DNA of 64,000 nt, from positions 42,866 through 106,865 of IMG/VR virus record IMGVR_UViG_3300025358_000002. One strand, given 5' to 3'. Shown here one piece after another: positions 21,891 through 61,544 of this stretch; position 1 is the stretch's first letter; every line of letters begins with the position of its first letter. The stretch comes from a virus. Lineage: Duplodnaviria > Caudoviricetes. Under the pieces are notes generated by a model that ran no database searches, had not been told where the DNA came from, and saw nothing but the letters and a program-made list of their open reading frames with translations. The position numbers were made by a program, and so were the translations under genes.

Positions 21891-21891
21891 C

Positions 21892-22473: not shown

Positions 22474-23345
22474 AAATCCTTATTACTGGCTACAAAGGAT
22501 TTGTTGGCAGATACTTTGTTAGAAAGTACGGAAGCGACCACGACATCACTGGCATCGACATTGTAGACGGTCGTGAGCATGATGTCCGCGAATTCTTTAA
22601 GCGCAACAGAGAACACTATGATCTTGTAATCCATCTAGCAGCTGTTGTAGGTGGCCGCATGACTATCGAAGGCAACCCACTCTCTGTTGCTGTAGACCTT
22701 TCCATTGATGCAGAGATGTTCCAATGGGCATTGCGCACTAAGCCAGGACGCATCGTTTACTTCTCTAGCTCCGCTGCTTATCCCATTGATCTGCAGACAA
22801 GAGATTCCGGCATCAAGCTTCGTGAAGATGCTATCGACATCAACAACCTGAAGATGCCCGACCTTACGTACGGTTGGAGCAAGCTGACCGGTGAGTACCA
22901 GGCACAGTTCGTTCAGGCGGAAGGTGTCAAGGTAAACGTCTTCCGTCCGTTCAGTGGTTACGGGGCTGATCAGGATCTGGACTATCCTTTCCCATCGTTT
23001 ATTAAGCGTGGCAAAGACCGTAGCAACCCATTTGAGATCTGGGGTGATGGATGCCAGGTCAGAGACTTTATCCACATAACTGACATTGTCAACGCAGTTG
23101 ATGAAGCCGTGCGTCAGGATGTAGAAGGTCCAGTGAACCTGGGCTGGGGTAGACCAACTTCTTTTAACGAGCTTGCCGAGATAGTATGCCACCAAGTGGG
23201 CTACGAACCAGAGATCAAGCACATTGAAACAGCACCTACCGGAGTAATGTATCGCGTGTGTGACCCCACAAAGATGCTGTCTTTCTATCAGCCAAAGATC
23301 TCCCTGGAAGACGGTGTTGATCTAGCACTGGCATTCAATGTCTGA
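22470..23345 (+). CDS. NAD-dependent nucleotide-sugar epimerase/dehydratase (extended SDR)
   Basis: ITGYKGFVG, HLAA, SSS, YGWSK (YxxxK), WGDG.QVRDFIH; most like GDP-sugar epimerases by eye. Confidence 0.9.
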   Translation: MKILITGYKGFVGRYFVRKYGSDHDITGIDIVDGREHDVREFFKRNREHYDLVIHLAAVVGGRMTIEGNPLSVAVDLSIDAEMFQWALRTKPGRIVYFSSSAAYPIDLQTRDSGIKLREDAIDINNLKMPDLTYGWSKLTGEYQAQFVQAEGVKVNVFRPFSGYGADQDLDYPFPSFIKRGKDRSNPFEIWGDGCQVRDFIHITDIVNAVDEAVRQDVEGPVNLGWGRPTSFNELAEIVCHQVGYEPEIKHIETAPTGVMYRVCDPTKMLSFYQPKISLEDGVDLALAFNV

Positions 23346-23925
23346 GATCACCGCACTGATCAGAACCATCGGCAGGCCAACACTCGGCAATGCCATTGAG
23401 TGCGCAAAGCGTGAGTTTGACAGAGTAGTTGTTGTCGCTGACAACGTTGATATCTCACAAGATGTTGACAACGTTACCTACTTGCGTACCGGACAGAAGT
23501 TCGGATTCTATGGAGGAGCGGCTATCAACATGGGTGCTTACGCCACAACCACCGACTTCTTCTGCCTGCTGGATGACGACGATGAATACGTAGATGGTGC
23601 AGGGTACAAGATGAAGTCCTGCATCATAGAAGAACCTGATGTTGACATCTGGATTCCCGGCCTTCTTTACAACGACGGTGCGACTGCATGTATGTCAGAT
23701 GCAGCAGGTGTAGCGATTGGCAACATTGCTGTCCCAACGTATCGCACACAGCTACTGTGGGAGCAGCCATTCCACGCCAAGCTTGGAATCCATGACATCA
23801 ACTGCATAGATTTTTATCACGTCTTGTCTTTACATGCCGCTGGCCATAGTGTACAATGGTACGGAGAAGCACTGTACAGGGTGAGACCAGAACTATCTGG
23901 TAGATTTGGAAAAGGAAGCGTATGA
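23338..23925 (+). CDS. glycosyltransferase, GT-A fold
   Basis: IRTIGRPTL, VVAD, AINMG, LLDDDD. Confidence 0.75.
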   Translation: MSEITALIRTIGRPTLGNAIECAKREFDRVVVVADNVDISQDVDNVTYLRTGQKFGFYGGAAINMGAYATTTDFFCLLDDDDEYVDGAGYKMKSCIIEEPDVDIWIPGLLYNDGATACMSDAAGVAIGNIAVPTYRTQLLWEQPFHAKLGIHDINCIDFYHVLSLHAAGHSVQWYGEALYRVRPELSGRFGKGSV

Positions 23926-25116: not shown

Positions 25117-25464
25117 ATGACAACGTTGATGAAGACAACAGCAAAGAATACCATTCAACTCGCAACGATATTAACGTTGTGGAAAATGGGAAGAGAAAAC
25201 GTTAAAAGAAAGAAGCTCATGGAAAAAACGCCAAGAGAAGACATAATTATTAAACCTTACGAGTTCGGTGTATACGAACCAGCCCTGATTGAAATCATGG
25301 GCACGTTGTCATCGCTTATGGAAACCATCTTGCGTAACGGCATTGATGTAGACCCAACGGTAATGAAGTCGGCACAAGAGATCATCAACGATTTTCAAAC
25401 CGTGCTGGACATGAAAAAGAAATACCTAGCAAACCTAGAAAAGGAAAAGGAAAATGGAAATTAA
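25117..25464 (+). CDS. hypothetical protein
   Basis: AAGGAG RBS, 115 aa. Confidence 0.65.
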   Translation: MTTLMKTTAKNTIQLATILTLWKMGRENVKRKKLMEKTPREDIIIKPYEFGVYEPALIEIMGTLSSLMETILRNGIDVDPTVMKSAQEIINDFQTVLDMKKKYLANLEKEKENGN

Positions 25465-25792
25465 ATTGAGTGTCAGTATCGGAGCAACACTCCAGGTAAA
25501 GAATGCTAAGGGCGAATGGGACTGGATCAAGCCAGAGGTCGGCTGCGAAGTTAAGCTAGTAGATGGTGAGATCAAAGCAGAAACACTCCCCGTACAGTTT
25601 GCAGCTATGTGGGATGACGTAGTAGGGCCACAGTTTGCCAACGTAGTCGTTGAACTGATTGAAGGTTCAGTGCCAAAGCCTGAAGCTGATGAAGTTGCTG
25701 AGGATTCCACTGAATCTGGTGAGGAGTTCATCGAGAAGCTCACCGCTATTATGGACGAGAAGCCGAACACTGATGAGGATGATTACTACTAA
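25454..25792 (+). CDS. hypothetical protein, acidic C-terminus
   Basis: 112 aa, coupled. Confidence 0.65.
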   Translation: MEIKLSVSIGATLQVKNAKGEWDWIKPEVGCEVKLVDGEIKAETLPVQFAAMWDDVVGPQFANVVVELIEGSVPKPEADEVAEDSTESGEEFIEKLTAIMDEKPNTDEDDYY

Positions 25793-25950
25793 TGCAAGTC
25801 TGGGTTGTAACTACAAAAGAAAAGGGCAAGGTTGTAGGTGTTTACTCCGATCCTGCTTATGCTAAGAAGAACATTGTTGACCCTGACAACGTAGTGGTTA
25901 CCAAGTTTCAGGTGAACGACACTGTTAAGAAATCAAAGAAGAGTGCTTGA
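25792..25950 (+). CDS. small hypothetical protein (52 aa)
   Basis: TAATG coupling; MQVWVVTTKEKGKVVGVYS... Confidence 0.55.
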   Translation: MQVWVVTTKEKGKVVGVYSDPAYAKKNIVDPDNVVVTKFQVNDTVKKSKKSA

Positions 25951-27695: not shown

Positions 27696-28645
27696 AAAAG
27701 AGCACACTACTCTTACTCGATGGCCATAACATATTTATCCGTAGCTTCAGTGGACTTATGCGTCATGGTCTAAGCGCACCCAACGGTGAAGGAACCTGGG
27801 GAGCTTACGGTGCATACAACGTACTGACTAGTATGGTGCGGAAGTATGATCCTAGCCACGTGCTCATCGCTTTTGACAAAGGTCGTAGCACCAAGCGTCT
27901 AGCGATTGACCCAGAGTACAAGGCCAACCGACACAAGCCAAGCGACAAACCACGCAATGCTACAGACGATGCATTCTCTACGGAGTTCAAGCCACAGCTA
28001 GCTACGTTTATGAACCTATGCTTAAAGAGTGGTGTGCCCTTCATGAGCCTGGATGGTGTTGAAGCTGACGATATCATTGCTACAGCTGCGCTTAAACACA
28101 GGACCGTATTCGATCGTGTTGTTATTGTGAGTGCAGACCACGACCTACACCAGCTGATCCGTGACAACATAATTGTTGTTAAACCCAGCATTAGCTACCG
28201 TGACATTGACGCTGAAGTGTTCGACACGCAATCTGTAAAGGCAGAGTGGGGTGTAGAGCCTGAGCGACTGCCAGAGATCTGGGCACTCATGGGTGACAAG
28301 GGTGACAACATCAAAGGCATCCAAGGTGTCGGTCCTAAGAAGGCTACCAAGATGATCGCTGAACATGGCGACCTCGAGACCGTGCTTAGCTTAGATGATG
28401 AGAAGATCCAGAATAACATCGATGTAGTTCGCAAGGCTAAGTCCTTGATTGAGCTGGGGGTAGATGATGAACTACCGTTCCCTCCACTAGGGGATCTGCA
28501 GTTCCACCCAGTAGAACACGGTGGCCCCAATGCACGTGAGCTGGAAGAAGTGTTCATTAACCTAGGGTTCACTCAGATTAGAAGTAAGTGGTTCCACCGT
28601 AACCTTTGGGCTGACAAGAGGGGATTCGGCAGGAGTCTTCTCTAG
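27692..28645 (+). CDS. 5'-3' exonuclease / flap endonuclease (Pol I N-terminal-like)
   Basis: LLDGHN, AFD, YKANR, EADD, SADHDL.Q, LMGDKGDNIKGIQGVGPKKA. Confidence 0.92.
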   Translation: MKKSTLLLLDGHNIFIRSFSGLMRHGLSAPNGEGTWGAYGAYNVLTSMVRKYDPSHVLIAFDKGRSTKRLAIDPEYKANRHKPSDKPRNATDDAFSTEFKPQLATFMNLCLKSGVPFMSLDGVEADDIIATAALKHRTVFDRVVIVSADHDLHQLIRDNIIVVKPSISYRDIDAEVFDTQSVKAEWGVEPERLPEIWALMGDKGDNIKGIQGVGPKKATKMIAEHGDLETVLSLDDEKIQNNIDVVRKAKSLIELGVDDELPFPPLGDLQFHPVEHGGPNARELEEVFINLGFTQIRSKWFHRNLWADKRGFGRSLL

Positions 28646-29700
28646 TGGCTCAGTGGATTATTAACCCATCCGTTGACATGCCAGAGGTAATGCAGCAATA
28701 CGGTAGGTTCCTGGAAGACGATTACCGCATGGCCATTGAGTCTATGCGAGTACCAGATTCGTTCGATGAATACTCTGAGAAAACTGGCAGACGCTTCATA
28801 ATCATTGGTGGCAAAGAACGACCAGGGCTTATTGCCAAGAGCGTCTTCCTCTGCCTTAAGCTATCTGGACCAGAAAGCGTAGCGGTGTATGTGAATACAC
28901 TCGACGAATTGTTCCTGGTACAGAACGTGTTCGACTACTACGGTGAGAACGTAGAGAAAAAGATTTTTGCTACTCACCACGACATGCTTAACCTTAGCCC
29001 AGAGTGGCGTAACTACATTGACGCTGCCACTGACATTGTGGTATACGGTGACGAACGTGACATGGAAGTGTGGCGTGAATATGAAACGGTAGAACGGCAT
29101 GTGTGGGAGCACAACTACACGTTCAGTTTTGGTATTATCAACGCTGAGAATCTACCCAGGACACTTATCAATGAGGTGTGCTTTGACTTCTTCTGTTACT
29201 ACGGAGAGGGAAGGCTAGCACCGAAGTTTTATTTTGTAATCGGTGAGTACTCGAAAGCATTGATTGAGAAGTTTGCAATGAACATGTCGTTCAACTATAG
29301 CAACCTCATCAACGATTACCGTTCCAAGCTGCCGTTCACACGTAAGAGCGACCTAACCGTAGGGGTACTGAGCAACCCGTATTCTGCAAAATTTATTCGT
29401 GTAGATCATTTGAAGTCCGACACGATCTTTGATACTCTGTATGGTGATGTACGTCTCATCTTCGTGAATGACCTTGACGAAATCGAAACGTTCATTGAGA
29501 AGTGGAAAGATCACATCGGCACAGTCGCCATCAATTGGGATGACGACGAAGACGTGTTAGACTTGCTCGAGGAGTATATGGTCCCGCGCATCTGCCACGT
29601 TGGTGACATGCAGTTCCCAGACTTCTTTGAACAGTACGATGCAGTAGATGACTTCAACATTTACGTCAGAGATGATAGTGACATTGATGGTCTTATATAA
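28645..29700 (+). CDS. acyl-CoA reductase (LuxC)-like protein, degenerate
   Basis: IVVYGD, SFGII, DFFCYYGEGRLAP (Arg at expected catalytic Cys), RICHVGDMQFP...YD. Confidence 0.5.
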   Translation: MAQWIINPSVDMPEVMQQYGRFLEDDYRMAIESMRVPDSFDEYSEKTGRRFIIIGGKERPGLIAKSVFLCLKLSGPESVAVYVNTLDELFLVQNVFDYYGENVEKKIFATHHDMLNLSPEWRNYIDAATDIVVYGDERDMEVWREYETVERHVWEHNYTFSFGIINAENLPRTLINEVCFDFFCYYGEGRLAPKFYFVIGEYSKALIEKFAMNMSFNYSNLINDYRSKLPFTRKSDLTVGVLSNPYSAKFIRVDHLKSDTIFDTLYGDVRLIFVNDLDEIETFIEKWKDHIGTVAINWDDDEDVLDLLEEYMVPRICHVGDMQFPDFFEQYDAVDDFNIYVRDDSDIDGLI

Positions 29701-47352: not shown

Positions 47353-48245
47353 TGGCGAAATCACCTGTTTTTGCTAAGCTAGCACAAGAATACGATGACA
47401 AGATGAGCAACGTAGAGCGTACGTTGATCGCTCTGCACGACGTCGCCGCCGATGCCACAAAGCCTGAAGATAAGAAGCTCGCTGATACAAAACTTACTGC
47501 CGCACTGCAGTCGAAGCGTCTTGATCTTTTCCGTAATTTGCGTAAGAACTGGCAAAGCATTGAACGTCTCGGCACCGGAGCATTCCCTATCATCAGAGCT
47601 CAGGAAAGTCCTGACGGACAGTACACGTTCTATGGCAAAACTCCAGGTGATATGCCAGCATTCACCAGTGAGTTTAATAAGCATCTTCCTACCATTGCTG
47701 CCATTGCTCAGGCACCAACTGTTAGAACTTTGGCAAACGGCAAAAGAGTTCATTCATGCTTAAGCACCACCCAAGAATTGCCTAGCTTGACTTTGTTCCT
47801 CAGGGAAAAGAGAAACCAGGATGATCTCAGAGGGCTTGTACTTCCTAGATTATCAGCGGGTCAAATTGTTCCGTGCACCAACCCATTGTGCCAAGACTGC
47901 TGGGACTGTGAACCCATACAGCAAGAACTTAGAACCAGCATGTCACTCATGAGCCCAACAAGCCCAGACGAAACGAGACAAGGCGGCATCAAGGGTATCA
48001 TCACTACACTTGCTCACTTTGCTGCAGCACAACGCAACAGAGGTATGACAAAAGAGACTCAGGACATGGCTCAATACGGCCAACGTTGTGTCGACAATCA
48101 CGATGGATTAAACACTGCTACTGAAGTAATTGCACACAGACTACGCAACGCATACCAAGATGATTTTATGATTAGCGGCGGTGCAAGCGGTGGTAGGCAC
48201 AGGGATTATATAATCGGCAACGGCAATAATACGGCGGCATATTAA
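47349..48245 (+). CDS. hypothetical protein
   Basis: 298 aa; H.C...C..LCQDCWDC. Confidence 0.7.
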   Translation: MMAKSPVFAKLAQEYDDKMSNVERTLIALHDVAADATKPEDKKLADTKLTAALQSKRLDLFRNLRKNWQSIERLGTGAFPIIRAQESPDGQYTFYGKTPGDMPAFTSEFNKHLPTIAAIAQAPTVRTLANGKRVHSCLSTTQELPSLTLFLREKRNQDDLRGLVLPRLSAGQIVPCTNPLCQDCWDCEPIQQELRTSMSLMSPTSPDETRQGGIKGIITTLAHFAAAQRNRGMTKETQDMAQYGQRCVDNHDGLNTATEVIAHRLRNAYQDDFMISGGASGGRHRDYIIGNGNNTAAY

Positions 48246-51200
48246 TGAAAATTAGTGAACTGTTTAGAACAAGAGAAGCAGCAACCTTCGCTGCTGAACC
48301 AGCAGAAAACCCGTCTCTCCCAGGGCACGAGGACTGTAACTGCGCCGACCTGTTCTTTGACAAAGACAAGTCCGCTGAAATAAAGTCTGCTGTTAGCAGT
48401 GGTAGCATGAGCCGCACATCTTTTCACCGCAGAGTAATGAACAGAATTTTTGAACTCATGCACGGACCAGAAGAAGGTCGTGCTGATGCTGCAAATAAAC
48501 TAGGACAAATGAAGCGCAAGATTCCCGTTGAAGGTAACCCTGGCCAGGAGTGGGAGCGTCACTGGCTTATGCACTTCCTAAGTTCTGGGTTTAATCACAG
48601 AGATCTTGGTTTTAGAGACTATGAAATTGGTGAAGACTACAGGAGGGGTCAGTCAGTTGCTTCTAGACTGGTTAGAACCGTTGCAGAATCCTCGCCAAGA
48701 TACAACAGAGAGAATTGTGGAACGTGCAACCAATACCTCACTGAGCTTCAGAACAGTGCTCGTGAATTAAATGACGAGATGCAAAGAAACAACGAGAAGC
48801 TGCCAAAAGACATGGGTCGTACCATGGCGGAATCGAAATCACGTCTTACGTTTAAGCGTATCTGGGACTCTTGGACTGGTAAGCAGCCTGTAAAGGACAA
48901 TGATCACCCTATTGTCAAGCGTGGCAACAAGATGCTGAAGCGTTGGAATACTCACACGGTTAGAGACCACGGTGTTGAGCTAGACTTTGACAGCCACCTT
49001 AAGCACACTCCAATTTCTATCGATCCATTGGGTAAGAGACTGGAAGCAAGATACCGTGATTTCGAGGACCTTGCGCCTGGGTGGAGCATTTCTACTCGAG
49101 CAGATATCCCAGTACAAGAACTTAGCCGGGATACGACTAACATGCTTGAAGGAGCATTCCCATTCCGCGAAATCTACGATCGCTACCTCTCTCCATTGGA
49201 TACCAACGTCAACGAAGAACAAGCCAATGACATGCTAGAGACCATGAAGATGCGTGGCGAAGCAGAGCAATATACGTTAGAGCCAATGAAAAAGAAGTTC
49301 AGAATCATTCAACCGCCGCGCTCTAACTTAAACAGAAGAGAGCGTCAAAAATTCGAGGGTAGAACAGATGGAGAACTGGCTCAGTGTCCTGTTAGAGTGC
49401 GGAGAGACTTCCAAATAAACAGGCTAAACTACCACCATCTCATTGAAGTACCGGATCACCTTAAAAACTTTTACCCCAATGGCATGTGCACAGAATGTAT
49501 GAAGCAAGGGTGTGATGGTTGGCATGGACTCCCACGCCACACTGAAACTATACTCGACATGCGTCCTCACGAAGTTAGAAGGGCGGAGGGTCAAGAAGTA
49601 GGTGAAGATGATCCTGAGTGGGATAATCTGAGCGAAAAGGAAAAGTTCGAATTACAGCAAACAACAGATGCTCACGATGATTATCTCTCTCCGTTGCCAA
49701 AGGCTGATCTTAGAGGTGAAAATGGCGTATGCGAAAACTGCGAACGTCCTGGATGCGATGGTAAAGAATGCCACAATATTCCTTCAGTATATGTAAGGGA
49801 TGTTCAGCCAAACCCTGTCACCATTACCGAGACGCCGCGTGTCACCGTATACGACCGCGGTGGCAATCAATTCTATGAGCGTAAAACAGTCGGCAATGAA
49901 CTAACCTATGAACCCGATACAACAAACTGGATGGCTCGTCCCATTGAGTACAATACTGATCGTCCAGAAATCCAACCCACTTACACCAACCACAAGTCAG
50001 CTGATGGAAATTGCACAAAGTGTGACAAGCCAGGTTGCAGCGGGTGGCACCAGGATGAAGGCTTCGCTGACCTCCAGCGTATCCCAAGACAGGATGCATT
50101 CCTCTTCCAGCGTGCTCGCATGCGTCCTAACCTAGAAGCTTTTGATGATTACCACCGTAGTCTTGAACGTTATAACAAACAGCCAAAGAGTAGAAGACTA
50201 CCTGATGTTGTTACGCAAGAACCACGCACTGAGCTGGTTCCGTTGAAGTCTAGAGTAACAGAATTCTCATACCCAACCGTAGAAAAAATTGGTCCTCAAT
50301 ATTTGAACCCGGCACGTGTGTTAACGCGCGACGTGACAAGAGTAATTCCCGAAGGCGCAAGAGCTATACCGGGCGAGGAACGCGATGTCACGTATAGCTA
50401 TGAGCGAGTGCCATCCATTGACAAAGATACTGGCAAGCAGATCATTGATACAGTTACACGTCCAGTATATGAAGATATTCCAGAGCATGAGCTCACACAC
50501 CAAAAACCATCTGATTCCCAGCTAACTGCTGCTATCAGAGACTACACCAATTCACACAGCCGAGCACTTCGAGCAGCCTATCCAGGTATGTCAAGAAGTG
50601 AAGCATTGGATGCACTTGCTGCCGACCACGCTAAAGAAATGAAGCGTTATGAAAGCCAGCGTGAGCGATTCCGTACATCATCAAAGAAAGAAGACATTAT
50701 GTCAAAATTTAATTCACGTTATGAAAAGGAAGCGAACATCGGTCCTGATTTGATTCACAGTCTCTACGATCTGGGTAAGGCTGTTGTTGGTCCGGTTGTT
50801 GATCAGGTCAGATCGGTGGGTGATGTTATCCACGATATTGCAACGCAAGACAACGGCATTATCGGTGAGAACCTTCGCAACCACACGGTAACCTACTCTC
50901 CTCAACAGCTAGCAGCTGATGCAGCACAACGTGCGCGTGAACACACGGACTTTGCCGGTGCAGTACGAGGATTAGGCGAAGAAGGTTTAGCTGGTATCTT
51001 GCTTAATAAAGAAAGAATCAAGGACTTTGCTCGTCACAACTTTGGCATCGGTGGTAAGCACACGCGTCCACGTGGACAAGAACAAGAGCATCCAATCGAT
51101 CATGAAGATCCAGAGATGGCTCTCAGATACCTTGAAAAGTGGGACAGAGAGAAGAACACCAGAGGTGCTAGCTTCTCAGAGCGTTTCGCTGCGGAAAAGA

Positions 51201-51313
51201 AGAAGCCTCCATGCGAAAAGTGTGGAAAGCACTGCTCAGATAAGGTAGAATGCAAGTCTAACCAGGATGATCGTCGACGCCAGCAAGCAGCTGACAACGC
51301 GTTCAACGACTAA
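48245..51313 (+). CDS. large modular protein with Zn-binding repeats and internal FxxR[Y/F] tags
   Basis: 1022 aa; 3x GxCxxCxxxGCxG repeats; internal MSKFNSRYEKEA and ASFSERFAAE. Confidence 0.7.
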   Translation: MKISELFRTREAATFAAEPAENPSLPGHEDCNCADLFFDKDKSAEIKSAVSSGSMSRTSFHRRVMNRIFELMHGPEEGRADAANKLGQMKRKIPVEGNPGQEWERHWLMHFLSSGFNHRDLGFRDYEIGEDYRRGQSVASRLVRTVAESSPRYNRENCGTCNQYLTELQNSARELNDEMQRNNEKLPKDMGRTMAESKSRLTFKRIWDSWTGKQPVKDNDHPIVKRGNKMLKRWNTHTVRDHGVELDFDSHLKHTPISIDPLGKRLEARYRDFEDLAPGWSISTRADIPVQELSRDTTNMLEGAFPFREIYDRYLSPLDTNVNEEQANDMLETMKMRGEAEQYTLEPMKKKFRIIQPPRSNLNRRERQKFEGRTDGELAQCPVRVRRDFQINRLNYHHLIEVPDHLKNFYPNGMCTECMKQGCDGWHGLPRHTETILDMRPHEVRRAEGQEVGEDDPEWDNLSEKEKFELQQTTDAHDDYLSPLPKADLRGENGVCENCERPGCDGKECHNIPSVYVRDVQPNPVTITETPRVTVYDRGGNQFYERKTVGNELTYEPDTTNWMARPIEYNTDRPEIQPTYTNHKSADGNCTKCDKPGCSGWHQDEGFADLQRIPRQDAFLFQRARMRPNLEAFDDYHRSLERYNKQPKSRRLPDVVTQEPRTELVPLKSRVTEFSYPTVEKIGPQYLNPARVLTRDVTRVIPEGARAIPGEERDVTYSYERVPSIDKDTGKQIIDTVTRPVYEDIPEHELTHQKPSDSQLTAAIRDYTNSHSRALRAAYPGMSRSEALDALAADHAKEMKRYESQRERFRTSSKKEDIMSKFNSRYEKEANIGPDLIHSLYDLGKAVVGPVVDQVRSVGDVIHDIATQDNGIIGENLRNHTVTYSPQQLAADAAQRAREHTDFAGAVRGLGEEGLAGILLNKERIKDFARHNFGIGGKHTRPRGQEQEHPIDHEDPEMALRYLEKWDREKNTRGASFSERFAAEKKKPPCEKCGKHCSDKVECKSNQDDRRRQQAADNAFND

Positions 51314-51325
51314 GAAAGATAAGCA

Positions 51326-51826
51326 ATGACAACAGACATCAACGAAATTGGTGGTATCCGTCCAGAGGATGTGAAGGTTACGCCCGAACAACAAGCACAG
51401 ATCAACGCATATCTTGCAGAGCAGAAGCGTGAAGAAGAAGAGCTTGGCAAGGAACAGCCTATCGAGCTTATGGAATCAGAGCTCATGGACGTATGGCACC
51501 TTCTCCAGGAACTCCAGTACAAGTATGGTAACCGTCCCGGTACCTTTGCTAACCTAACGTCTCTTCGCAATGAGGCTGACGAGAAGTTCCATGCTCTTGG
51601 TTTTCAAGTTGTTGTTGACTGGGTTATGCCGGGTTTGATGCAGCTTAACGGTCAGGCATCACCTGAGCCTCCCACCATCACTATCGTTGGTCGTGTCGAT
51701 GGATCAGAGTACAACCCTGAACAGAACCGTTACGAGACGGGTGCCGGTGTGGCCGACGCATACTATGATGCTAAGCGTCAGTCATTGGGCATGAGCAACA
51801 AAAAGCTTATCCTACCAGGTCAGTAG
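51326..51826 (+). CDS. hypothetical protein
   Basis: AGAAAG RBS, 166 aa. Confidence 0.7.
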   Translation: MTTDINEIGGIRPEDVKVTPEQQAQINAYLAEQKREEEELGKEQPIELMESELMDVWHLLQELQYKYGNRPGTFANLTSLRNEADEKFHALGFQVVVDWVMPGLMQLNGQASPEPPTITIVGRVDGSEYNPEQNRYETGAGVADAYYDAKRQSLGMSNKKLILPGQ

Positions 51827-51834
51827 GTTTAAAT

Positions 51835-53445
51835 ATGAGTTGGCTTGCTAGGTTTCGTGATAGAGCAATAAAAATTGCTCGTAATGACGATGACCACGTC
51901 GATGATGAAGATCGTCCGTGGCCAAAGGTTGATGATCAAGAGCCTAATTTTTTGTCGATGCTCGACGCCAACCGAAACAACCAGCAAGTAACACTTGAAT
52001 ATCCTAATGAACTTCTAACACCAAGGACTAACCCGGAGCGTGAGCCTGGTCTAGATACACACACTATTATCCCCGTAACCGTTGGTGCTAGGGATGGTCG
52101 TGGTGATTGGATGCACTCCAGTGTAAACGCATATTGTTTAACGCACGGTGAATGGCATGGCATGGCCTCGCCAAAACATATGCAGAACATAAGAGACATT
52201 GGCCCAAGTCCTTTGCCTGCTCTGCCAGAAGACCCAAGAATTGCTGAGCATAGAAAAGTTCTGGAGCAACAAGAGCGGGACTTGCGCGACCTCTTGCCAC
52301 AAGTACAGCAGACAAGCTGGACTCCACCTGCTGATGATGAAGGTGCTAAATGGCACCCGCACATTCAACGTGCTATCGACAACGAGCAAGAGTTTGACAT
52401 GCTTTACACAAAAGCAAAAGAGAGTCAAGCTAGACGTTACGTCGTTATTCCGACGCAGCTCGGCCCGTCACCCAATGGTAAATCGGTTTACATGCGAGGG
52501 TATGATCCTACTGGTGGGATGTTTAAAACATTCTTGACTGGTCGCATCAACCAGATTAACCCTAAGTTCCGTCCACGCTCAATAGAAATTGGTCAAGATC
52601 TTGAACCACTAACGTATCCTGACACACAGAAAGCTCCATCATCTGGGTTCGTTTCAGAAAATCCATCTGAACTTTCTTTCTATAATATAAATGAAGACCG
52701 AGGCCCAGTACAGCCTACTGACGAAGAGTACGATGAGCTGCGTAGACTTGACATCGATCCAGATACTCACGACAAGGCTACCATTAGGCGTTTGCGTAAT
52801 AAGGGTATCACTCACCTACAAATCAAGAGTGCTGCTGAAGAGCATGGCCTGCCTTACGAAGACTACGAAAGTGCTTTGGTTGACACAGGGTACAACCACG
52901 AAATGGCAGTAGAAGAAGCGAAGAAGTATAGACAGCACGACACCCACATTATTGCTAAGAACAAAGAGATTAGAAGCAAATATCCTAATTTAAATGCTGA
53001 CAATCGTTTGTCTGACCAAGACTACAAAGATACTCTTGAAGTGCTGTTCAAGCACCACCTTACTCTAAAGAACCTTGCAAGCAGCGAACTCGAGTCACCG
53101 TATGAGGATACTCCTGGGCGTGAACGTGCACATGAATGGATTTTAAGCGAGCTGGCTAAGCTAGATCCTTCGCTTAAGCCGCACGTTACACGCAATACAT
53201 ATTCTAATAAGAGCAACATCCTTCCAGAAGAAGGGTACTACGCTCTACTATCGGATCTTCGTGCGCACCACAACCTCGGTATTGCTGAAGTTGGTCTGCC
53301 AGATGCTAGTGGTGCTGAGCCAACTAGCGATTCATCTCACAGAAGATATATTGTTGAGCGACGCAAGCTCGATGCTTTGACGCGTGTTGCCAATAGTAAA
53401 TTCTATCCACAAGAATACATCCCTCAACTGTATGAGGAAGATTGA
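51835..53445 (+). CDS. multi-domain protein containing a WYL-like domain
   Basis: AIDNEQEFDMLY...RYVVIPTQL...YMRGYD...KTFLTGRI; N-terminus MSWLARF. Confidence 0.6.
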   Translation: MSWLARFRDRAIKIARNDDDHVDDEDRPWPKVDDQEPNFLSMLDANRNNQQVTLEYPNELLTPRTNPEREPGLDTHTIIPVTVGARDGRGDWMHSSVNAYCLTHGEWHGMASPKHMQNIRDIGPSPLPALPEDPRIAEHRKVLEQQERDLRDLLPQVQQTSWTPPADDEGAKWHPHIQRAIDNEQEFDMLYTKAKESQARRYVVIPTQLGPSPNGKSVYMRGYDPTGGMFKTFLTGRINQINPKFRPRSIEIGQDLEPLTYPDTQKAPSSGFVSENPSELSFYNINEDRGPVQPTDEEYDELRRLDIDPDTHDKATIRRLRNKGITHLQIKSAAEEHGLPYEDYESALVDTGYNHEMAVEEAKKYRQHDTHIIAKNKEIRSKYPNLNADNRLSDQDYKDTLEVLFKHHLTLKNLASSELESPYEDTPGRERAHEWILSELAKLDPSLKPHVTRNTYSNKSNILPEEGYYALLSDLRAHHNLGIAEVGLPDASGAEPTSDSSHRRYIVERRKLDALTRVANSKFYPQEYIPQLYEED

Positions 53446-54272
53446 TTATGTTCAACAGTAGACAAGCATCGGCGGGTCCTGACGGTATCCGCCACGAGAA
53501 CGAACGCAAGCTAGTTGGTTTTGACACCGAAACAACTGGTTTGTGGAAGCCTGGTCAGGGCGACGACGTACAAGAACCTATCTCTTATTCGTTTGTTCCT
53601 TATATTGATGGCAAGCCGCTTGGTCGTCCAATCTCTTTCCTTGCACGTCCTGCTACGCCTACGCTATACGGTATGCACCCAGCAGCCATCGAGACGCACG
53701 GATGGGAACCTGAAATGGTTGACAGTGCATTCCGTGGCGACCATGTCATGCACAGAGAGATTGTTGATCTAGGCAGAGGACAAAGCGCTGTTGTTAGAAG
53801 AACGTACCAGCCTGCTGTCGACAGTGAATCGGGAATCATCCGAGCAGCACAGTTGCTCGGTCATTTTCAACGTCGTGGGTTTACTATCGTCGGTGCCAAC
53901 GTCAAGGGCTTTGACATTGACATGCTTCACCACCACTACAGACGTTTAACGAATGAACCTATTCAAACTAGTGGATTTGATCCATCAACTGCCGACATCT
54001 TTGACGTTATCCAAAACCATTGGTTGATGGAAGGCGAGCCTCGTAAAGAAAATGGCGATCAAATTAGACGTAGGATGTCAGATCCTAAGGTTGCCCCGCC
54101 ATATCCTAAAAAAAGAGCCACATTGTCTGATGTTTATGGGGTACAGCCTGGTGACCACACCGCTGAGCAAGACGCAAGAACTTCTGTTGAGATCGCTTTG
54201 CGCCAAATAGCAACACAACAACGCCGTGACAACGGCGAAAACGTACCATTTGATTACAGAGGATATCAGTAA
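53442..54272 (+). CDS. DEDDh (DnaQ-like) 3'-5' exonuclease
   Basis: FDTETTG, HG, GANVKGFD, HTAEQD; N-terminus FNSRQAS; start may be ATG 53448. Confidence 0.8.
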   Translation: MIMFNSRQASAGPDGIRHENERKLVGFDTETTGLWKPGQGDDVQEPISYSFVPYIDGKPLGRPISFLARPATPTLYGMHPAAIETHGWEPEMVDSAFRGDHVMHREIVDLGRGQSAVVRRTYQPAVDSESGIIRAAQLLGHFQRRGFTIVGANVKGFDIDMLHHHYRRLTNEPIQTSGFDPSTADIFDVIQNHWLMEGEPRKENGDQIRRRMSDPKVAPPYPKKRATLSDVYGVQPGDHTAEQDARTSVEIALRQIATQQRRDNGENVPFDYRGYQ

Positions 54273-54273
54273 A

Positions 54274-54540
54274 ATGAGCTGGGATTTAAACTATATTATA
54301 GAGAAGGCTGCAAATCCTAAGACCGCATCGGTTGGTGCAAGTGGTCTGGATTACAGCCAATTTACGCCGTGTTCTGGTAATTCTGAGTGTGGTACATGCA
54401 AGCACATCCAATCGGTCATGGATGAGAACAAAGATGAAGAGACCGGAAAAGTGATTGACAAGGAATCTGACAATATTCATAAACAGGCATTGGACTTCCA
54501 CCAGAACAAGGTGCCCGGTTTCGCAAAGGACAACCAATGA
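54274..54540 (+). CDS. small Cys-containing protein
   Basis: MSWDLNYIIEKAANPKTAS...C...CGTC...H; start moved to ATG 54274. Confidence 0.6.
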   Translation: MSWDLNYIIEKAANPKTASVGASGLDYSQFTPCSGNSECGTCKHIQSVMDENKDEETGKVIDKESDNIHKQALDFHQNKVPGFAKDNQ

Positions 54541-55604
54541 GAAAAGTATCTAGAGCATCAGAGCAAGAAGCACAGCTCAACTTCCGCACAGCAAAGCCAT
54601 TGCCAACGTACCCTGACACAGACCGTGCTCAGGACATTGCTAGTGGTGTAGGTCCAGACCCACACGACCCAACTGAAAAAGACCCCAAAAAGGGCGACCC
54701 AATGCCAGCAAAGAAGGTCACCCCTAAGCCTGCTGGTGAAGACAATGACAAGTATGATAAGCAACTTGATGCTGCTAAGGGTAACAAGGCCGTAACGCCT
54801 CAAAACATTTCTTTTATGAAGCAAGAAGACAACGCTGCTGACATCAGAAACCACCAGAAGCCAGAGTACCCAGGTCTTGGCACTGTGCCAATTCCTACGG
54901 GCAACAACAGCAATGCTCAGGGATCTATAACATCATGGACCAACCCTCGAAAGGCTAGCTTCAATGAACGCTATGCTAGTGAACAGGGCGAGGGTGGTAA
55001 GTTTAAGCCACCGGCAGGTGTGATCTCTGCTGCGAAGCACGCACTTGAACTGATCGCTGCAGGCAAGGCCGGTGATGGTTTTACTAGCGTAGGTCGTCAC
55101 CGCGCACACCAGCTCGCTGCAGGTGAAATGGTTCCTCTTAGTGACATCAAGCGCATGCACTCATACTTCTCACGCCACGGCGTTGACAAGAAGGGTAAGG
55201 ACTGGAACAATGACAGCCCCGGTAAGGTAGCCTGGCTTGCATGGGGTGGAGACGCCGGTAAGTCATGGGCCGCTAGCATCGTTTCAAAGCATGGCGGCGG
55301 GGATAACAAGAAGGAAGCATCTGGGGATGCAATACCACTTGGACCTTCAAGCATGGACTTTAGTCAGTCACAAATTGATGCTCCATGCCAAATTTATCAC
55401 TTTAGCCACGTAGATCATCGCAACCCAAACATGCATTGGTGTACCTGCGGAAATCTTGAAAACGATCATAGCATACACAGCCGATATAATGGTTATAGAT
55501 TGTATGGGGATAAAAGGTTCTTAAGTGGAGAGAAGGAAGCCAACGTATCTATGGACCCCAACGACTGGCGCAACGAGTACTTCAATCTAGATTCAGATTG
55601 GTAA
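54537..55604 (+). CDS. modular virion-associated protein (putative)
   Basis: Contains PP..V...A...T.VG..RA.QLA...IKRM.SYFSRH...SPG.VAW..WGGDAG..W domain seen in phage head regions, flanked by ASFNERYASE and KEA motifs. Confidence 0.65.
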   Translation: MRKVSRASEQEAQLNFRTAKPLPTYPDTDRAQDIASGVGPDPHDPTEKDPKKGDPMPAKKVTPKPAGEDNDKYDKQLDAAKGNKAVTPQNISFMKQEDNAADIRNHQKPEYPGLGTVPIPTGNNSNAQGSITSWTNPRKASFNERYASEQGEGGKFKPPAGVISAAKHALELIAAGKAGDGFTSVGRHRAHQLAAGEMVPLSDIKRMHSYFSRHGVDKKGKDWNNDSPGKVAWLAWGGDAGKSWAASIVSKHGGGDNKKEASGDAIPLGPSSMDFSQSQIDAPCQIYHFSHVDHRNPNMHWCTCGNLENDHSIHSRYNGYRLYGDKRFLSGEKEANVSMDPNDWRNEYFNLDSDW

Positions 55605-55607
55605 ACC

Positions 55608-55952
55608 ATGGATTGGCAACGCCGTTACGCAATGAATGAAGATGAGTTCACTAAAGCCATGGGCTATTATTGCAACGTCGGCAACCACTATGTCAATAAA
55701 GAACCTGTATGTGATACAGAGGGATGTGAGTGGATAGGTTATCCAGAAGCAGAATTGCTTCTTGGTGATGTAGGCGGTAACATAGAAGGCATTGGGAATA
55801 ACGATCACTCTCCACTATGTCAGTTCGCTTGCAATGATCACAGATACATTAAGTGCGAAAGATGTGGTGAGGTTACGAACCCAACATACTCTAAAGGTAC
55901 TAAACTAAAAAAATGCAGAGACTGTCGTCGTGCATTAGGCGAAAGATATTAA
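55608..55952 (+). CDS. Cys-rich hypothetical protein
   Basis: MDWQRRYA N-terminus; several CxxC. Confidence 0.6.
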   Translation: MDWQRRYAMNEDEFTKAMGYYCNVGNHYVNKEPVCDTEGCEWIGYPEAELLLGDVGGNIEGIGNNDHSPLCQFACNDHRYIKCERCGEVTNPTYSKGTKLKKCRDCRRALGERY

Positions 55953-55955
55953 GCC

Positions 55956-57959
55956 TTGCCAAAAGTAACTAGAAATAGTAACCAAAACATTCTGAAGAGT
56001 CAGCAGGACTTCTTCGAGATTGCCAAGAACAGCCTACGTGGCGAGAAGGACATCCCTGATATCGTCACGTTCGCGGAGAGCCCACACTTCCTTAATGGTA
56101 GTAAACTATTCCCACGTCAGAAGACTCTGCTTAAGTTAATTATGCTAGAGACAGAGAGCCTCACTGAATATGACTACGCTGTCATTGAGGAGTGGACGAA
56201 GAACTTCGATCCAACGGGCACACGCATTGGTGTAAGCCCTGACATCATGGATCGAATAGCTTATCTTAAGGACAATGGCTACAGTCATTTCCGTGAAGTA
56301 GTGAACATCACTGGTCGTCGTGGTGGTAAAGGACACATCGGTGGTATCCTGGGTGCGTACAAAAACTGGCAGCTGCTTATGCTAGATGACCCCCAGTACT
56401 ACTACAACATCGACAAGTCAAAGGACCTCTACTTATTCTGCGTGGCTACGAACATTGAGCAGGCCGCCAAGTATCAGTTTGCTGACCTCTCCAACGCTAT
56501 CATTAACGGCCCATGCTTCAAGCCGTACATCGCTGACGTGAAGGAACGCTTCCTGGCTCTCCGTACTCCCTCAGACGTGCGGAGAATCGCTGCGTTTGAA
56601 TCGCAGGGCATCAGACCTAGCCGATTGATTGCGTCAGTACGTAACATGGCTGTCACCTCTAACTCCAAGGCTTCCCGTGGTGCTGCTGCGTTTGCTGTAA
56701 TGTTCGACGAGTTCGCTCACATGCTTGTAGGTACAGGTGGTGCGAGAACATCCGAGGAAGTTTACAACGCCATTACCCCTGCGTTGGACCAGATGGGTAA
56801 GGATGGATTGATCTACATCCCCACGTCTCCGTTCACCAAGGTAGGCAAGGCATACAACCTGTATGAATCTGCTCTTGAAAAAGATGAGGATGGTAAGCCA
56901 GCTTATCCTAACATGATGATGGCACAGCTTCCTTCGTGGGGCCCTTATGAGGACTGGGACAACCCAGTTGTTACGCAAGGCTATACATTCCGCAACTCAC
57001 CACAGAAGTATGACGACCAGATGAAGTCCCTGGAGCGTCGTGAACCTGATGTATTCAAGGTAGAGCGTATGTCTCAATGGGCTGAAGTTACCAATGCTTA
57101 CCTCAACCCCAAGCTTGTGGATCGTATGTTCGAGCCCTTCAAGGATGCTAAGGGTGAGATGCGAGAGCTTGAGCCTGTGTACGAGGGTAAGTTTAATGTA
57201 ATTTATCATGGTCACTGCGACCCCTCAAAATCTGGTGCCAACACAGCTTCAATGATCTGTCACGTCGAAAAAATCCCTGACCCCGAAGATGGTGAAGAGT
57301 GGTACCACGTCGTAGTAGACTGGATTAAGGTGTGGGATCCTGAGAACTACCCAGACAACCAGATTAACTACGAAGAGATCGAAGAAGAACTAGTAGATAT
57401 CATCTGTCAGTTCCGAACAATGAAGGTGTTCTCCTTCGACCAGTACGGTGCGTTCGTCACTCTACCTAGACTAAAGCGTAGACTACAGCAGATGAACCCG
57501 CCGCACAAGGTCAAGATCCGTGAAGAGAAGTTCACCAAAGAAAGCAACATGCGTCGCGCTGAGCGTTTCAAGTCTGCTCTTGGTATGAACTGGGTCCACT
57601 CGTATCGTGACCCGTTTGGTCCTAACGAGACTAGTCTATTGGAACAGGAGCTCAAGTTCCTTCAGGAAATCAATGGGCGTGTAGATAAGCAGAAGTTTGG
57701 ACCTATCCGTACGTCTGACCTCTCTGACTGCTTGATGGTCTGTGTTGATGCTTTGCTCGAAGACAACTTTATTAAGCTAGAGATGCGAGAGAAGCTTGGT
57801 CAGACACAGTTGTTGTCTGGTTCTCAGGGTGGTTATCACACAACCAATGCTAACGATATGCAACCTGTATCGGCTAGAGATCGCCTAAGAGTATTCGGCG
57901 CACAACGTGCACAAAGAGATTACGGTGGTATGTCCCGTGGAAGGCCAGGTAGACGATGA
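55956..57959 (+). CDS. terL: terminase large subunit
   Basis: LFPRQ, GRRGGKG Walker A, FDEFAH Walker B, PTSP, nuclease HCDPS, FDQY, SDLSD. Confidence 0.9.
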   Translation: MPKVTRNSNQNILKSQQDFFEIAKNSLRGEKDIPDIVTFAESPHFLNGSKLFPRQKTLLKLIMLETESLTEYDYAVIEEWTKNFDPTGTRIGVSPDIMDRIAYLKDNGYSHFREVVNITGRRGGKGHIGGILGAYKNWQLLMLDDPQYYYNIDKSKDLYLFCVATNIEQAAKYQFADLSNAIINGPCFKPYIADVKERFLALRTPSDVRRIAAFESQGIRPSRLIASVRNMAVTSNSKASRGAAAFAVMFDEFAHMLVGTGGARTSEEVYNAITPALDQMGKDGLIYIPTSPFTKVGKAYNLYESALEKDEDGKPAYPNMMMAQLPSWGPYEDWDNPVVTQGYTFRNSPQKYDDQMKSLERREPDVFKVERMSQWAEVTNAYLNPKLVDRMFEPFKDAKGEMRELEPVYEGKFNVIYHGHCDPSKSGANTASMICHVEKIPDPEDGEEWYHVVVDWIKVWDPENYPDNQINYEEIEEELVDIICQFRTMKVFSFDQYGAFVTLPRLKRRLQQMNPPHKVKIREEKFTKESNMRRAERFKSALGMNWVHSYRDPFGPNETSLLEQELKFLQEINGRVDKQKFGPIRTSDLSDCLMVCVDALLEDNFIKLEMREKLGQTQLLSGSQGGYHTTNANDMQPVSARDRLRVFGAQRAQRDYGGMSRGRPGRR

Positions 57960-58618
57960 ATTGGTCTATTAGATACGCTAGCGAACGCCCAGACATAAGT
58001 TTTAGCCAAGCGGTTCAAATCGCTAAAGATAGAGCAGCTAATGCTGTCCCATTTACTGGCAACCAAAACGAACCAATTGTAGGTTTTACTGGAGAGACGG
58101 GCAGTATCTATAGAAGATTGCCACGAACTGTACCAACTGGAGAATTATGGACGCCAGGCGGAGAATGGCCACAATGGGATAGAGTTAAAAGCCAAGAACA
58201 ACAAATTATGCACGAAGTACAATTAGGTGCCGGAGAAGTTCAAACAAGATATAAAAAACCAAAAGATATTTCTTTGTGGTTACACCCACAGGTAAACGAA
58301 GACGCTTCTAATCTAGTTTTAAGCCCTATTGGTTTGCATATATTGACAAAAGATGAATATTATGCAAAAGATTATGATCCTAACGATAAGAATTCTATGC
58401 TTGCAAAGACAGTTGATGGTCCTTTGCTAATCCATGGTACACATTGGAGCCATATGCCAATAAATGGTTGGCACACTCACGAATTTAACATAATTGCAAA
58501 TGCGCTTGCGTACCATTCACACTCTGGTCATCCACCAGTAACCATTCATTATGGTGGCTTACCTGAAGGTGCTGATGAATTGTTCCGTAAGTATGAAGGT
58601 ACTGATTTAATATGGTAA
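57956..58618 (+). CDS. hypothetical protein with NWSIRYA tag
   Basis: 220 aa, ATGA-coupled to terminase. Confidence 0.65.
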   Translation: MNWSIRYASERPDISFSQAVQIAKDRAANAVPFTGNQNEPIVGFTGETGSIYRRLPRTVPTGELWTPGGEWPQWDRVKSQEQQIMHEVQLGAGEVQTRYKKPKDISLWLHPQVNEDASNLVLSPIGLHILTKDEYYAKDYDPNDKNSMLAKTVDGPLLIHGTHWSHMPINGWHTHEFNIIANALAYHSHSGHPPVTIHYGGLPEGADELFRKYEGTDLIW

Positions 58619-59025
58619 ACTGGTCTATTAGATATGCTAAAGATGATGCAAAGAAACGCATTATGAATCAATTAAAGCAGAAGTACCCAGGTAAGAGAGT
58701 AATTGATGACGCGGGAAGTTATTTTGCTTTGCTAGAAGAAGCTAGTGATCACCCTGAGTATGACCTCGCCATCCAGGTTGTCATTGCACCTACCCCTAAG
58801 CACAAGCACAAGCACACTACCCACGTGTATCGATCAATTGATACTCCATTTAATCTATTCGTAGATAAAGATTCTATACGTGTAAACCCAGGTGAATCAT
58901 ATACTGTTAAACCAGATACAGTACACTGGTTGTCTAACGACCCAGGTACAGAGTGCTGGTTGGAAGTGATGTCAAGCCCGGGCATTCCTGATAAGAACCC
59001 AGACGTTGTTAAGGTTAAGCAATGA
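58612..59025 (+). CDS. cupin-domain protein with NWSIRYA tag
   Basis: HKHKHTTHVY...PGESYTVKPDTVHWLSN. Confidence 0.75.
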   Translation: MVNWSIRYAKDDAKKRIMNQLKQKYPGKRVIDDAGSYFALLEEASDHPEYDLAIQVVIAPTPKHKHKHTTHVYRSIDTPFNLFVDKDSIRVNPGESYTVKPDTVHWLSNDPGTECWLEVMSSPGIPDKNPDVVKVKQ

Positions 59026-59810
59026 ACTGGTCATTACGTTACGCTATTGCTCAATATAACTATCAAGGTAGCCCAACGTTAGATGATGGTAAAACTTACG
59101 AAAATATAAAAAATAAAACAAAAAAGTTTTACGACGAAGGTGGCAGTGTAGATATCCACCACTTTGACCTATCTAAAGGTAAGTTTCCTAAAAATTACGA
59201 AATGGCTGATCATTTTTTACAACAATCAATTAGGTTAAAAAATATTGCGCAGCAAGCAACTGATCCTGTTAAATTCCGTGCAGCCCAAGAGACAAGTTAC
59301 TATGCAGAAAACATTAGTAGATTCTATAGAACAGGTAGATTTCCTAATGCTTATACAAAAAACGCACGAGACAATAAAATGAGCAGTGTATTCGCATTTT
59401 CTCGTGATTCAGATGGTAATATAACCGCAGCATCTTCTGGTCAAGTGCACCCAGGAGATGAAAACAGTGGCAGATTATACGTTACAAACGGCACTGCGTC
59501 GTCTGTTCCAGGTCACGCTACGGTAGTACAACATGCTATTTTGCACCATGTTGTTGGTGAGCACACTCCTGTATTTTCTCAAGTTTTTAACCCAACAGTA
59601 AACTATGAAGATATAAACATGAGAATAAAGCCATGGGATGAAGAAGATCAAAAGCAACAGGACAATGCTATTAAGTATCACAAAGGTCTTGGCAGGCGTT
59701 TAGAGTATGAGCCAAGTGGCAATATTACATCAAACTGGTTAGGCAATGATGTTACTAGGTTGATTAGAAACACTAGACTTAGAACAAAAGTAAAACATAT
59801 TCAGAATTAA
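59022..59810 (+). CDS. protein with NWSLRYA tag and GNAT-like C-terminal domain
   Basis: DGNITAAS...LYV...PGHAT...NAIKYHKGLG resembles GNAT motifs A/B (divergent). Confidence 0.5.
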   Translation: MNWSLRYAIAQYNYQGSPTLDDGKTYENIKNKTKKFYDEGGSVDIHHFDLSKGKFPKNYEMADHFLQQSIRLKNIAQQATDPVKFRAAQETSYYAENISRFYRTGRFPNAYTKNARDNKMSSVFAFSRDSDGNITAASSGQVHPGDENSGRLYVTNGTASSVPGHATVVQHAILHHVVGEHTPVFSQVFNPTVNYEDINMRIKPWDEEDQKQQDNAIKYHKGLGRRLEYEPSGNITSNWLGNDVTRLIRNTRLRTKVKHIQN

Positions 59811-60001
59811 TCTAACAATGCATGCACTGTGATGCACCAGTACTGCTTACCATTTAATGCTTCCCATAATGCATGAGTCTCGTGCTTGTTCCACTCCGCT
59901 TCAGGGATTGCCTTCTGAGCCCCCTCAAGCGTCTTGTATAGCCCGGAAATCTCCATGTTATCATAACCTGCGTCATATTGTAATGCGTATACTAACGTCA
60001 T
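59807..60001 (-). CDS. hypothetical protein
   Basis: 64 aa; G.Y.TLE.A pattern shared with 62004-62213. Confidence 0.55.
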   Translation of the reverse strand: MTLVYALQYDAGYDNMEISGLYKTLEGAQKAIPEAEWNKHETHALWEALNGKQYWCITVHALLD

Positions 60002-60294
60002 AGATTGAACAGCTCCTTAGCTGCCCATTCTAACCGTTCTTGTGGTGTCATGCCACCCCACCAACCTTCTTCTTGGTTGCGTACTGCTTCGTAACGGCAA
60101 GTATCTACCACAGGACAACCTTCACAGATCTGAACTAGCTTAAACCGCTTGCTGTCTGTGAGCTTGAGCGCAGGATAGATGAACTGATTGGTATCTTCAC
60201 CATAGCAGTTCCCGTCGTAGACCCATTCGTTACCCTTGTTATTGGGCAACGTCTGGGCCAACTCCTTTACTCGCCACACTAGTGACTTACTCAT
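59998..60294 (-). CDS. whiB: WhiB-family protein
   Basis: W...C...F...ICEGCPVVDTC...GWWGGMT..ER. Confidence 0.85.
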   Translation of the reverse strand: MSKSLVWRVKELAQTLPNNKGNEWVYDGNCYGEDTNQFIYPALKLTDSKRFKLVQICEGCPVVDTCRYEAVRNQEEGWWGGMTPQERLEWAAKELFNL

Positions 60295-61292: not shown

Positions 61293-61544
61293 TTATTTTT
61301 TGCTTTTTATGTTTACTGCTTGACGTTTCCACCTTTCTGACCTACGTTCTTTTGGGGAAAGACCACCAAAGATACCGTGTTTGCTGTCCGTTTCAATGGC
61401 AAAGTTCAAGCATGGCTGAATAACAGGGCAGTTCTTACACACAGCTTTAGCGTTCTTAATCATCTGACGAGTATTAGGACCGCGATCTGCGAAAAACATA
61501 TCCGTATCCATTCCTTTACAACTGGCCTGTTCAAACCAATCCAT
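61293..61544 (-). CDS. whiB: WhiB-family protein (canonical)
   Basis: WFEQASC...FF...AKAVCKNCPV..PCL..A...GIFGGLS..ER. Confidence 0.92.
   Translation of the reverse strand: MDWFEQASCKGMDTDMFFADRGPNTRQMIKNAKAVCKNCPVIQPCLNFAIETDSKHGIFGGLSPKERRSERWKRQAVNIKSKK

Follow-up and report, generated by a model that had tools for sequence, protein, structure and literature searches.

Bacteriophage T4 loads a diverse set of internal proteins into its head by means of an N-terminal sequence of approximately 10 residues, which is removed by a single cut and exits the capsid; foreign proteins are packaged too when they carry this sequence as a fusion (PMC8442874, PMC3012670). A gp21-like protease of the giant phage SPN3US cuts after A-X-E (PMC10052503). 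Here, we describe a short peptide tag that is shared by many unrelated proteins of a viral contig of 106,865 bp (IMG/VR record IMGVR_UViG_3300025358_000002), of which bases 42866–106865 were analyzed. This stretch of 64,000 nucleotides is called the window and the whole contig the genome; positions are those of the window unless given as genome positions. Our best reading, which we hold tentatively, is that the tag would be a capsid-targeting label in the manner of T4.

Like the T4 capsid targeting sequence (CTS), the tag consists of about 10 residues at the very N-terminus, is common to unrelated and fast-changing accessory proteins, and has two aromatic residues followed by an alanine and a closing glutamate. 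As in T4, a protease of the gp21 fold is encoded and the cargo loci differ between close relatives. Unlike in T4, the host is probably actinobacterial, the head module is of the HK97 type with a separate scaffold, and the terminase is closest to that of Rhodococcus phage E3; the tag itself has no sequence similarity to the T4 CTS. There are also many more cargo families than in T4, as well as functional-looking internal copies at module junctions. With the giant phages (phiKZ, 201phi2-1, and SPN3US) it shares A-x-E at the proposed cut site, a gp21-like protease, and many putative head-internal proteins. However, the propeptides of those phages are mostly 20 to 254 residues long rather than one shared short peptide, and the genomes considered here measure just approximately 105 to 135 kb.

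Three further systems offer partial parallels. The accessory proteins of the phage P1 Dar anti-restriction system (DarA, DarB, Hdf, Ulx, and Ddr) are loaded into the head for injection via their N-terminal regions, as we propose here, but P1 relies on ordered protein-protein dependencies and has no common short tag. The cargo-loading peptides of encapsulins are short conserved terminal peptides that send unrelated cargo into an HK97-fold shell, again as proposed here, but they are usually C-terminal, are not cleaved, and act in a non-viral compartment. Finally, Iyer et al. reportedly described in 2017 the polyvalent proteins of phages and conjugative elements, whose effector modules are said to be delivered with the DNA. 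The domain of a tagged 355-amino-acid (aa) protein described below is likewise found fused to MuF, portal, and protease proteins, but the tagged modules mostly come as small individual genes, each bearing a short tag of its own, instead of one giant fusion. By this comparison, the system would work most like the T4 CTS combined with the A-X-E processing of giant phages; it has in common with T4 one short peptide shared at protein N-termini, a protease of the gp21 fold, cargo that is hypervariable, and modularity.

A short peptide tag on unrelated proteins

The original prediction placed a common motif at the start of several open reading frames (ORFs) around the large terminase gene, and all the ORFs and N-termini that it named were found where it had placed them. 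Four ORFs near the terminase (starting at 55608, 57956, 58612, and 59022) begin with M-(x)-[N/D]-W-[S/Q]-x-R-Y-A, and the internal copies that had been reported are also present, two in a 1022-aa ORF (residues 822 and 977) and one in the 355-aa ORF (residue 142). Among all genome ORFs of at least 40 aa (106,865 bp), there are 7 occurrences of the strict pattern [WF]-x-x-R-[YF]-A, of which 6 fall within window positions 48245–59810. Four lie at residue 3 or 4 of an ORF. By our estimate, composition would lead one to expect approximately 0.5 occurrences. When the first 14 residues of 137 predicted proteins were compared blindly, all against all, the tag pairs ranked top (39 to 42, background at most 26), and the same comparison on a tag-less relative, G008, gave background scores only. 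The shuffled control demanded for the motif gave a concordant result: a 12-column profile of the tag assigns 18 to 30 bits to the strong copies of the window, versus a maximum of 16.6 in approximately 12,000 shuffled proteins. Because this profile was trained on the tag instances themselves, the blind N-terminus comparison is the cleaner evidence.

The tag was also said to be encoded by different codons in different copies, and this is the case. This contig and its relatives provide 100 distinct DNA versions of the tag, in which the codons for the invariant arginine are AGA (36), CGT (35), CGC (17), and CGA (7), and those for the tyrosine TAC (53) and TAT (45). Tryptophan alternates with phenylalanine, and the asparagine and alanine codons vary freely. 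The DNA 5' of the tags is unrelated between copies, and many tag starts fall inside the preceding gene. The mixture of AGA and CGN arginine codons together with the free synonymous variation indicates selection on the peptide, and we conclude that the tag is conserved at the peptide level.

The extended consensus of this 8- to 10-residue tag is M-[N/D/S]-[W/F]-[N/S/D]-x-R-Y-A-x-[E/D]-K, a subset of copies continuing with [T/E]-A, and the start codon lies 1 or 2 codons ahead of the aromatic residue in 77 of the 100 distinct versions. A trailing K/R-x-A had also been described; the preference is present but weak (0.6 to 0.7 bits in the profile). An N-glycosylation sequon (N-W-S) was considered and rejected because most copies read N-W-N, S-F-N, or D-W-N. 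Two of the N-termini originally listed as copies fared less well. That of the 51835 ORF scores below the profile threshold, and that of the 53442 ORF is borderline (8.9 bits), although its orthologue in the relative G002 starts with a Y-N-S-R-Y-A variant. Conversely, three copies had been missed: a decayed one at 54274 and two at ORF starts upstream of the window, at genome positions 24329 (159-aa ORF) and 16464 (732-aa ORF). The features of the tag-bearing part of the window are as follows.

48245..51313 (+): fast-evolving 1022-aa ORF with zinc-knuckle repeats and two internal tags; no family match in Pfam or PHROGs
50699..50734 (+): first internal tag within the 1022-aa ORF (residues 819–830), with an in-frame methionine at its start; 18.2 bits
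51167..51199 (+): second internal tag within the 1022-aa ORF (residues 975–985); 20.4 bits
51326..51826 (+): conserved, untagged 166-aa acidic gene at the left edge of the tagged island; abuts the large terminase gene (TerL) in G008
51835..53445 (+): 536-aa ORF with a weak WYL match and a sub-threshold tag-like N-terminus
53448..54272 (+): DnaQ-like exonuclease ORF with a borderline F-N-S-R-Q-A variant (8.9 bits); real start probably the ATG at 53448
54274..54540 (+): 88-aa zinc-ribbon ORF with a decayed tag (arginine to asparagine and a 10-aa insert); orthologue in a tagged family, E 4e-20
54537..55604 (+): 355-aa ORF with a variable N-terminal part, an internal tag, and a conserved domain (residues ~152–262, phrog_2859)
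54954..54986 (+): internal tag of the 355-aa ORF, residues 140–150; 28.8 bits
55608..55952 (+): 114-aa cysteine-rich ORF with an N-terminal tag (55608–55640); 20.8 bits
55956..57959 (+): untagged large terminase, with a stop that overlaps the start of the tagged gene behind it
57956..58618 (+): 220-aa ORFan, tagged at its N-terminus (57956–57985); 30.2 bits
58612..59025 (+): 137-aa ORF with a weak cupin match and an N-terminal tag (58612–58644); 28.5 bits; tagged orthologue in G001
59022..59810 (+): 262-aa ORF with no assigned function and an N-terminal tag (59022–59045); 25.9 bits; distant tagged orthologue in G003

The repeats of the 1022-aa ORF, G-x-C-x-x-C-x-x-P-G-C-x-G-W-H, resemble zinc knuckles and recur in the 732-aa pre-portal protein (genome 16464–18662). 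The 166-aa protein is an unproven candidate for the small terminase on account of its position directly upstream of TerL in G008; neither protein families nor solved structures gave support for this assignment.

The tag extends well beyond this genome. A terminase search of IMG/VR returned 22 related loci (63% to 83% identity), most of them with several tagged ORFs, and a search of 2.9 million viral contigs with the back-translated DNA pattern of one tag version yielded just 31 matching stretches. In many of these stretches, 2 to 4 matches lie within approximately 1 kb and form arrays of consecutive small tagged genes. At least 25 related contigs from freshwater viruses bear the tag. In total, there are at least 102 distinct tagged proteins, which fall into 57 clusters at 50% identity (a lower bound) and are mostly unrelated to each other; a first set of 62 tagged proteins gave 26 BLAST families with the tags masked, and approximately 24 clusters in this set have no BLAST relationship to one another. 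Within the window, the 220-aa and 262-aa proteins align over the 8-residue tag only. The original proposal is supported in part, as a modular label on unrelated proteins that extends to the whole phage clade, the packaging and cleavage it invoked being putative. Tags are carried by six sequenced relatives. G008, which is complete, with terminal repeats, a terminase of 63% identity, and a G+C content of 37.5% (41% to 48% in the tag-bearers), has none by either the profile or the blind N-terminus comparison. Open-literature searches returned no account of such a tag in actinobacterial phages, and no tag was found near the terminase of Rhodococcus phage E3, the closest cultured terminase relative.

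The tagged cargo is mostly small, with many CxxC pairs and, for most proteins, no assigned function. Pfam recognized five families only: an amidase, a weak cupin, a ParB-like nuclease, a DnaJ-type cysteine-rich repeat, and one DUF. The tagged amidase is of the cellular type (473 aa), and its tag lies within a 32-residue N-terminal extension that precedes the Pfam domain. Searches of Pfam, PHROGs, NCBIfam, and the protein atlas gave almost nothing for the 220-, 262-, and 114-aa proteins, and the label "GNAT-like" originally given to the 262-aa protein found no support in any of them. The other cargo labels were partly right: the cupin match is weak and under the Pfam cut-off, and the exonuclease and WYL proteins are weakly tagged or untagged. 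The genes most often found beside tag arrays encode a cysteine-peptidase-like protein of 242 aa, a protein of 140 aa, and multi-copy paralogues; this genome has none of them. In L071 (7341–13451) and L080 (1–3189), tag arrays are accompanied by up to five or six paralogous genes of approximately 200 to 240 aa, which are likewise missing here and, judged by eye, may be 2OG-Fe(II) oxygenase-like.

Module junctions and genomic placement of the tagged genes

Several proteins carry the tag at the junction between modules. In this genome, an internal tag stands ahead of the conserved domain in the 355-aa protein, and in relatives the same domain opens a gene with an N-terminal tag. A 203-aa protein of locus L022 has its second tag exactly where G001, L019, and G003 are split into two adjacent tagged genes, and two metagenome homologues have tags at their module junctions, P0020 two of them and P0032 three. 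Homologues outside the clade have the domain and lack the tag. Fusions and fissions that fall exactly at the tags, together with these tag-less outside homologues, indicate that the tag is an add-on unit marking where each module begins, and its conservation persists once it has become internal. Position +7 is occupied by E or D, which gives A-x-E/D at +5 to +7, in 64% of the 97 tags at N-termini and in most of the clear internal ones. In other phages, the domain of the 355-aa protein is fused to an HK97-family prohead protease and to a lambda-family portal (names per source records); its other fusion partners presumably belong to the Mu F, Mu portal, and Mu protease families. Because of these fusions to portal, protease, and MuF proteins, the domain behaves as a head-internal passenger.

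Tagged genes occupy the interval between the 166-aa gene and the terminase, which are directly adjacent in G008, and also follow the terminase. Tagged genes and terminase are separated by 3-nucleotide gaps or have overlapping stop and start codons, and this tight packing places them in one transcription unit. The tagged ORFs have few or no orthologues in 6 related genomes, in which core genes are 50% to 99% identical, and thus form hypervariable islands. Outside the terminase region, the tagged 159-aa gene (genome 24329) lies between the portal and protease genes of this genome only, flanked by two membrane-protein genes. These predicted membrane proteins (genome 23949–24326 and 24810–25205) are themselves in an unusual location. 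Another insertion point, in L076 and G006, is just 5' of the orthologue of the gene at genome 39188 and of the tail-sheath region (G006 14800; L076 from approximately 10.9 kb), and a further one is upstream of a lysis-like block. In addition, the large fast-changing pre-portal proteins of G000, G001, and G005 begin with F-N variants of the tag, which is suggestive of a link to the head, the match being post hoc.

Tags are absent from the blocks of small early-like genes, where 0 of 89 ORFs are tagged, versus 22 of 341 in the remaining regions (Fisher p = 0.012). In G000 and G001 the reverse strand carries these blocks, and in G006 they are co-oriented; their timing is inferred from gene content. 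A promoter and terminator scan from 44 to 62 kb gave as many promoters as shuffled sequences and terminator-like sites only approximately 2 standard deviations above them, and therefore no usable information on timing.

Head module and host of the phage

The head genes lie upstream of the window, at the following places.

Genome 21345–23702: portal
Genome 25272–25934: prohead protease (phrog_18299)
Upstream of the window: scaffold-like 462-aa protein
Genome 28633–29631 (L002:13633–14631): major capsid protein

An AlphaFold2 model of the protease (mean predicted local distance difference test score, pLDDT, 87) has T4 gp21 as its best match in the PDB (5jbl; Z 10.6, root-mean-square deviation 2.4 Å over 126 residues, 23% identity), followed by herpesvirus proteases (Z 7 to 10). 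On this model, the phage protease has the gp21 (herpesvirus-protease) fold. It has 2,787 homologues, most of which carry it as the N-terminal domain of proteins of 500 to 2,000 aa, the short stand-alone form being a minority. The major capsid protein is 92% to 99% identical across relatives whose terminases are just 63% to 83% identical. Its variation is confined to the first 5 to 12 residues, the sequence beyond being fixed, which suggests an unusually strong constraint on the shell and an N-terminal stub that is disordered or removed. Insertions of approximately 350 aa were seen in the portal ORFs of G003 (1127 aa) and G008 (1173 aa), and of approximately 230 aa in the terminases of L021 and L024, which span 2.7 kb; these may be inteins or other insertions.

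The nearest cultured relatives of the window large terminase are those of Rhodococcus phage E3 and of cluster-C-like mycobacteriophages (37% to 43% identity). Given the WhiB-like genes, the G+C content of 47%, and the origin of all relatives in lake metagenomes, we infer that this myovirus-like phage clade infects low-G+C freshwater Actinomycetota. Two WhiB-like small cysteine-rich genes (59998–60294 and 61293–61544, both on the minus strand) lie inside the reverse-strand early-like block and support an actinobacterial host.

Proposed capsid targeting and its alternatives

According to the capsid-targeting reading, the tag would be a portable address label that marks fast-changing accessory proteins for entry into the assembling prohead, presumably by binding a prohead component. 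The labeled proteins would then be carried by the virion and reach the next host along with the DNA. The gp21-fold protease probably cuts after the acidic residue, which would remove N-terminal tags and, at internal tags, separate the modules of fused proteins. It is possible, if somewhat doubtful, that the phage has in this way a plug-in cargo system, in which the product of any gene that gains the tag would be loaded and injected and fused cargo would be cut at its internal tags by the protease. A role in the head is favored by the gp21-fold protease, the A-x-E/D endings, the fusions of the cargo domain, the insertion into the head module, the co-transcription with the terminase, and the absence of tags from early-like blocks.

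Several observations weigh against this reading. The original prediction expected the motif in the major capsid and scaffold proteins, but capsid, scaffold, portal, and protease all lack a canonical tag, and no A-x-E enrichment was found when sought in scaffold and other head proteins. One third of the tags have no acidic residue at +7, and the excess of glutamate at this position in internal over N-terminal copies is not significant (p = 0.13), stems largely from one family, and involves non-independent copies. Some tagged genes directly follow a divergent junction and could therefore be early. The E3 terminase sits among small non-structural genes, so that proximity to the terminase is weak evidence for a head role in this lineage. 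A megablast search of the region against cultured phages gave no nucleotide match, and we count the absence of a cultured close relative on the same side. Finally, the tag-less G008 retains the same protease, the scaffold, and a capsid protein of 92% identity, and because these head proteins are kept without tags, no receptor could be singled out among them. An N-terminal motif of the scaffold was rejected as a correlate of the tags because G008 has it too, and none of the genes missing from G008 (a C92-like amidase, a ferritin-like protein, and membrane proteins) was a convincing receptor. In all six tag-bearing genomes, the portal begins with a conserved extension of 17 residues, which is missing from the G008 portal; this extension is the sole correlate of the tags that was seen and, as judged against one negative genome, just a lead for the receptor.

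The tag could instead be a short docking motif for another common partner, such as a host chaperone, protease adaptor, or polymerase, a phage hub such as the terminase, or a modifying enzyme. Its i, i+3/i+4, i+7 pattern (aromatic, Arg-Tyr, acidic) may place these residues on a single side of a short helix, a common trait of linear motifs, internal copies would serve as well as N-terminal ones, and the lower G+C content of G008 could reflect another host. However, no non-core gene family is consistently found beside tag arrays in 20 independent loci, as the dedicated enzyme of a RiPP-like or radical-SAM-linked tag might lead one to expect, the candidate clade-specific genes resemble lysis or ferritin-like genes, and docking leaves the head-module insertions, the head-associated cargo domain, and the absence from early-like blocks unexplained. 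We consider this explanation unlikely. It is improbable that the tag is a processing site only, at which a phage or host protease cuts multi-module proteins, with N-terminal copies as leftovers of gene fission and no targeting. The tags do lie at the junctions of multi-module proteins, with fission exactly there, and most clear internal copies have glutamate at +7. Yet 77% of the copies are N-terminal, where trimming 8 to 10 residues has no evident purpose, and these are conserved as strongly as the internal ones, even on proteins without fused relatives such as the amidase.

Removal of the accessory proteins at a set time through a turnover signal (degron) appears more improbable still. Tryptophan and phenylalanine are classical destabilizing N-terminal residues in bacteria, and a cut just before the aromatic residue of the tag would expose one of them. 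Against this, we know of no processing enzyme for such a cut, and a degron would account neither for the module junctions nor for the head-module insertions and the head-linked cargo domain. A DNA-level relic of gene insertion, left by recombination or by a gene-start cassette and with no role for the peptide, would suit genes that lie in recombination-prone hypervariable islands. This explanation is close to refuted: arginine is encoded by both the AGR and the CGN families, the tyrosine, asparagine, and alanine codons are free, tryptophan and phenylalanine alternate, and the upstream DNA is not conserved. It was rejected on this codon diversity and on the unrelated upstream DNA.

If the plug-in cargo reading is true, the tag would be the first capsid-targeting code outside the T4-like and giant phages, with dozens of cargo families including a captured amidase. 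Loading in the style of T4, via a short removable address, would then have arisen or persisted in a very different phage lineage, and foreign proteins could be packaged into HK97-type capsids with the help of a very short tag. As a head-loading signal, the tag would flag from sequence alone which proteins these abundant lake phages deliver into host cells. For most of the flagged proteins no function is assigned; they may act at an early stage of infection, perhaps against host defenses, and would make up a list of candidates. Should the partner be something other than the capsid, a peptide carried by more than 50 unrelated proteins still implies a common receptor worth finding.

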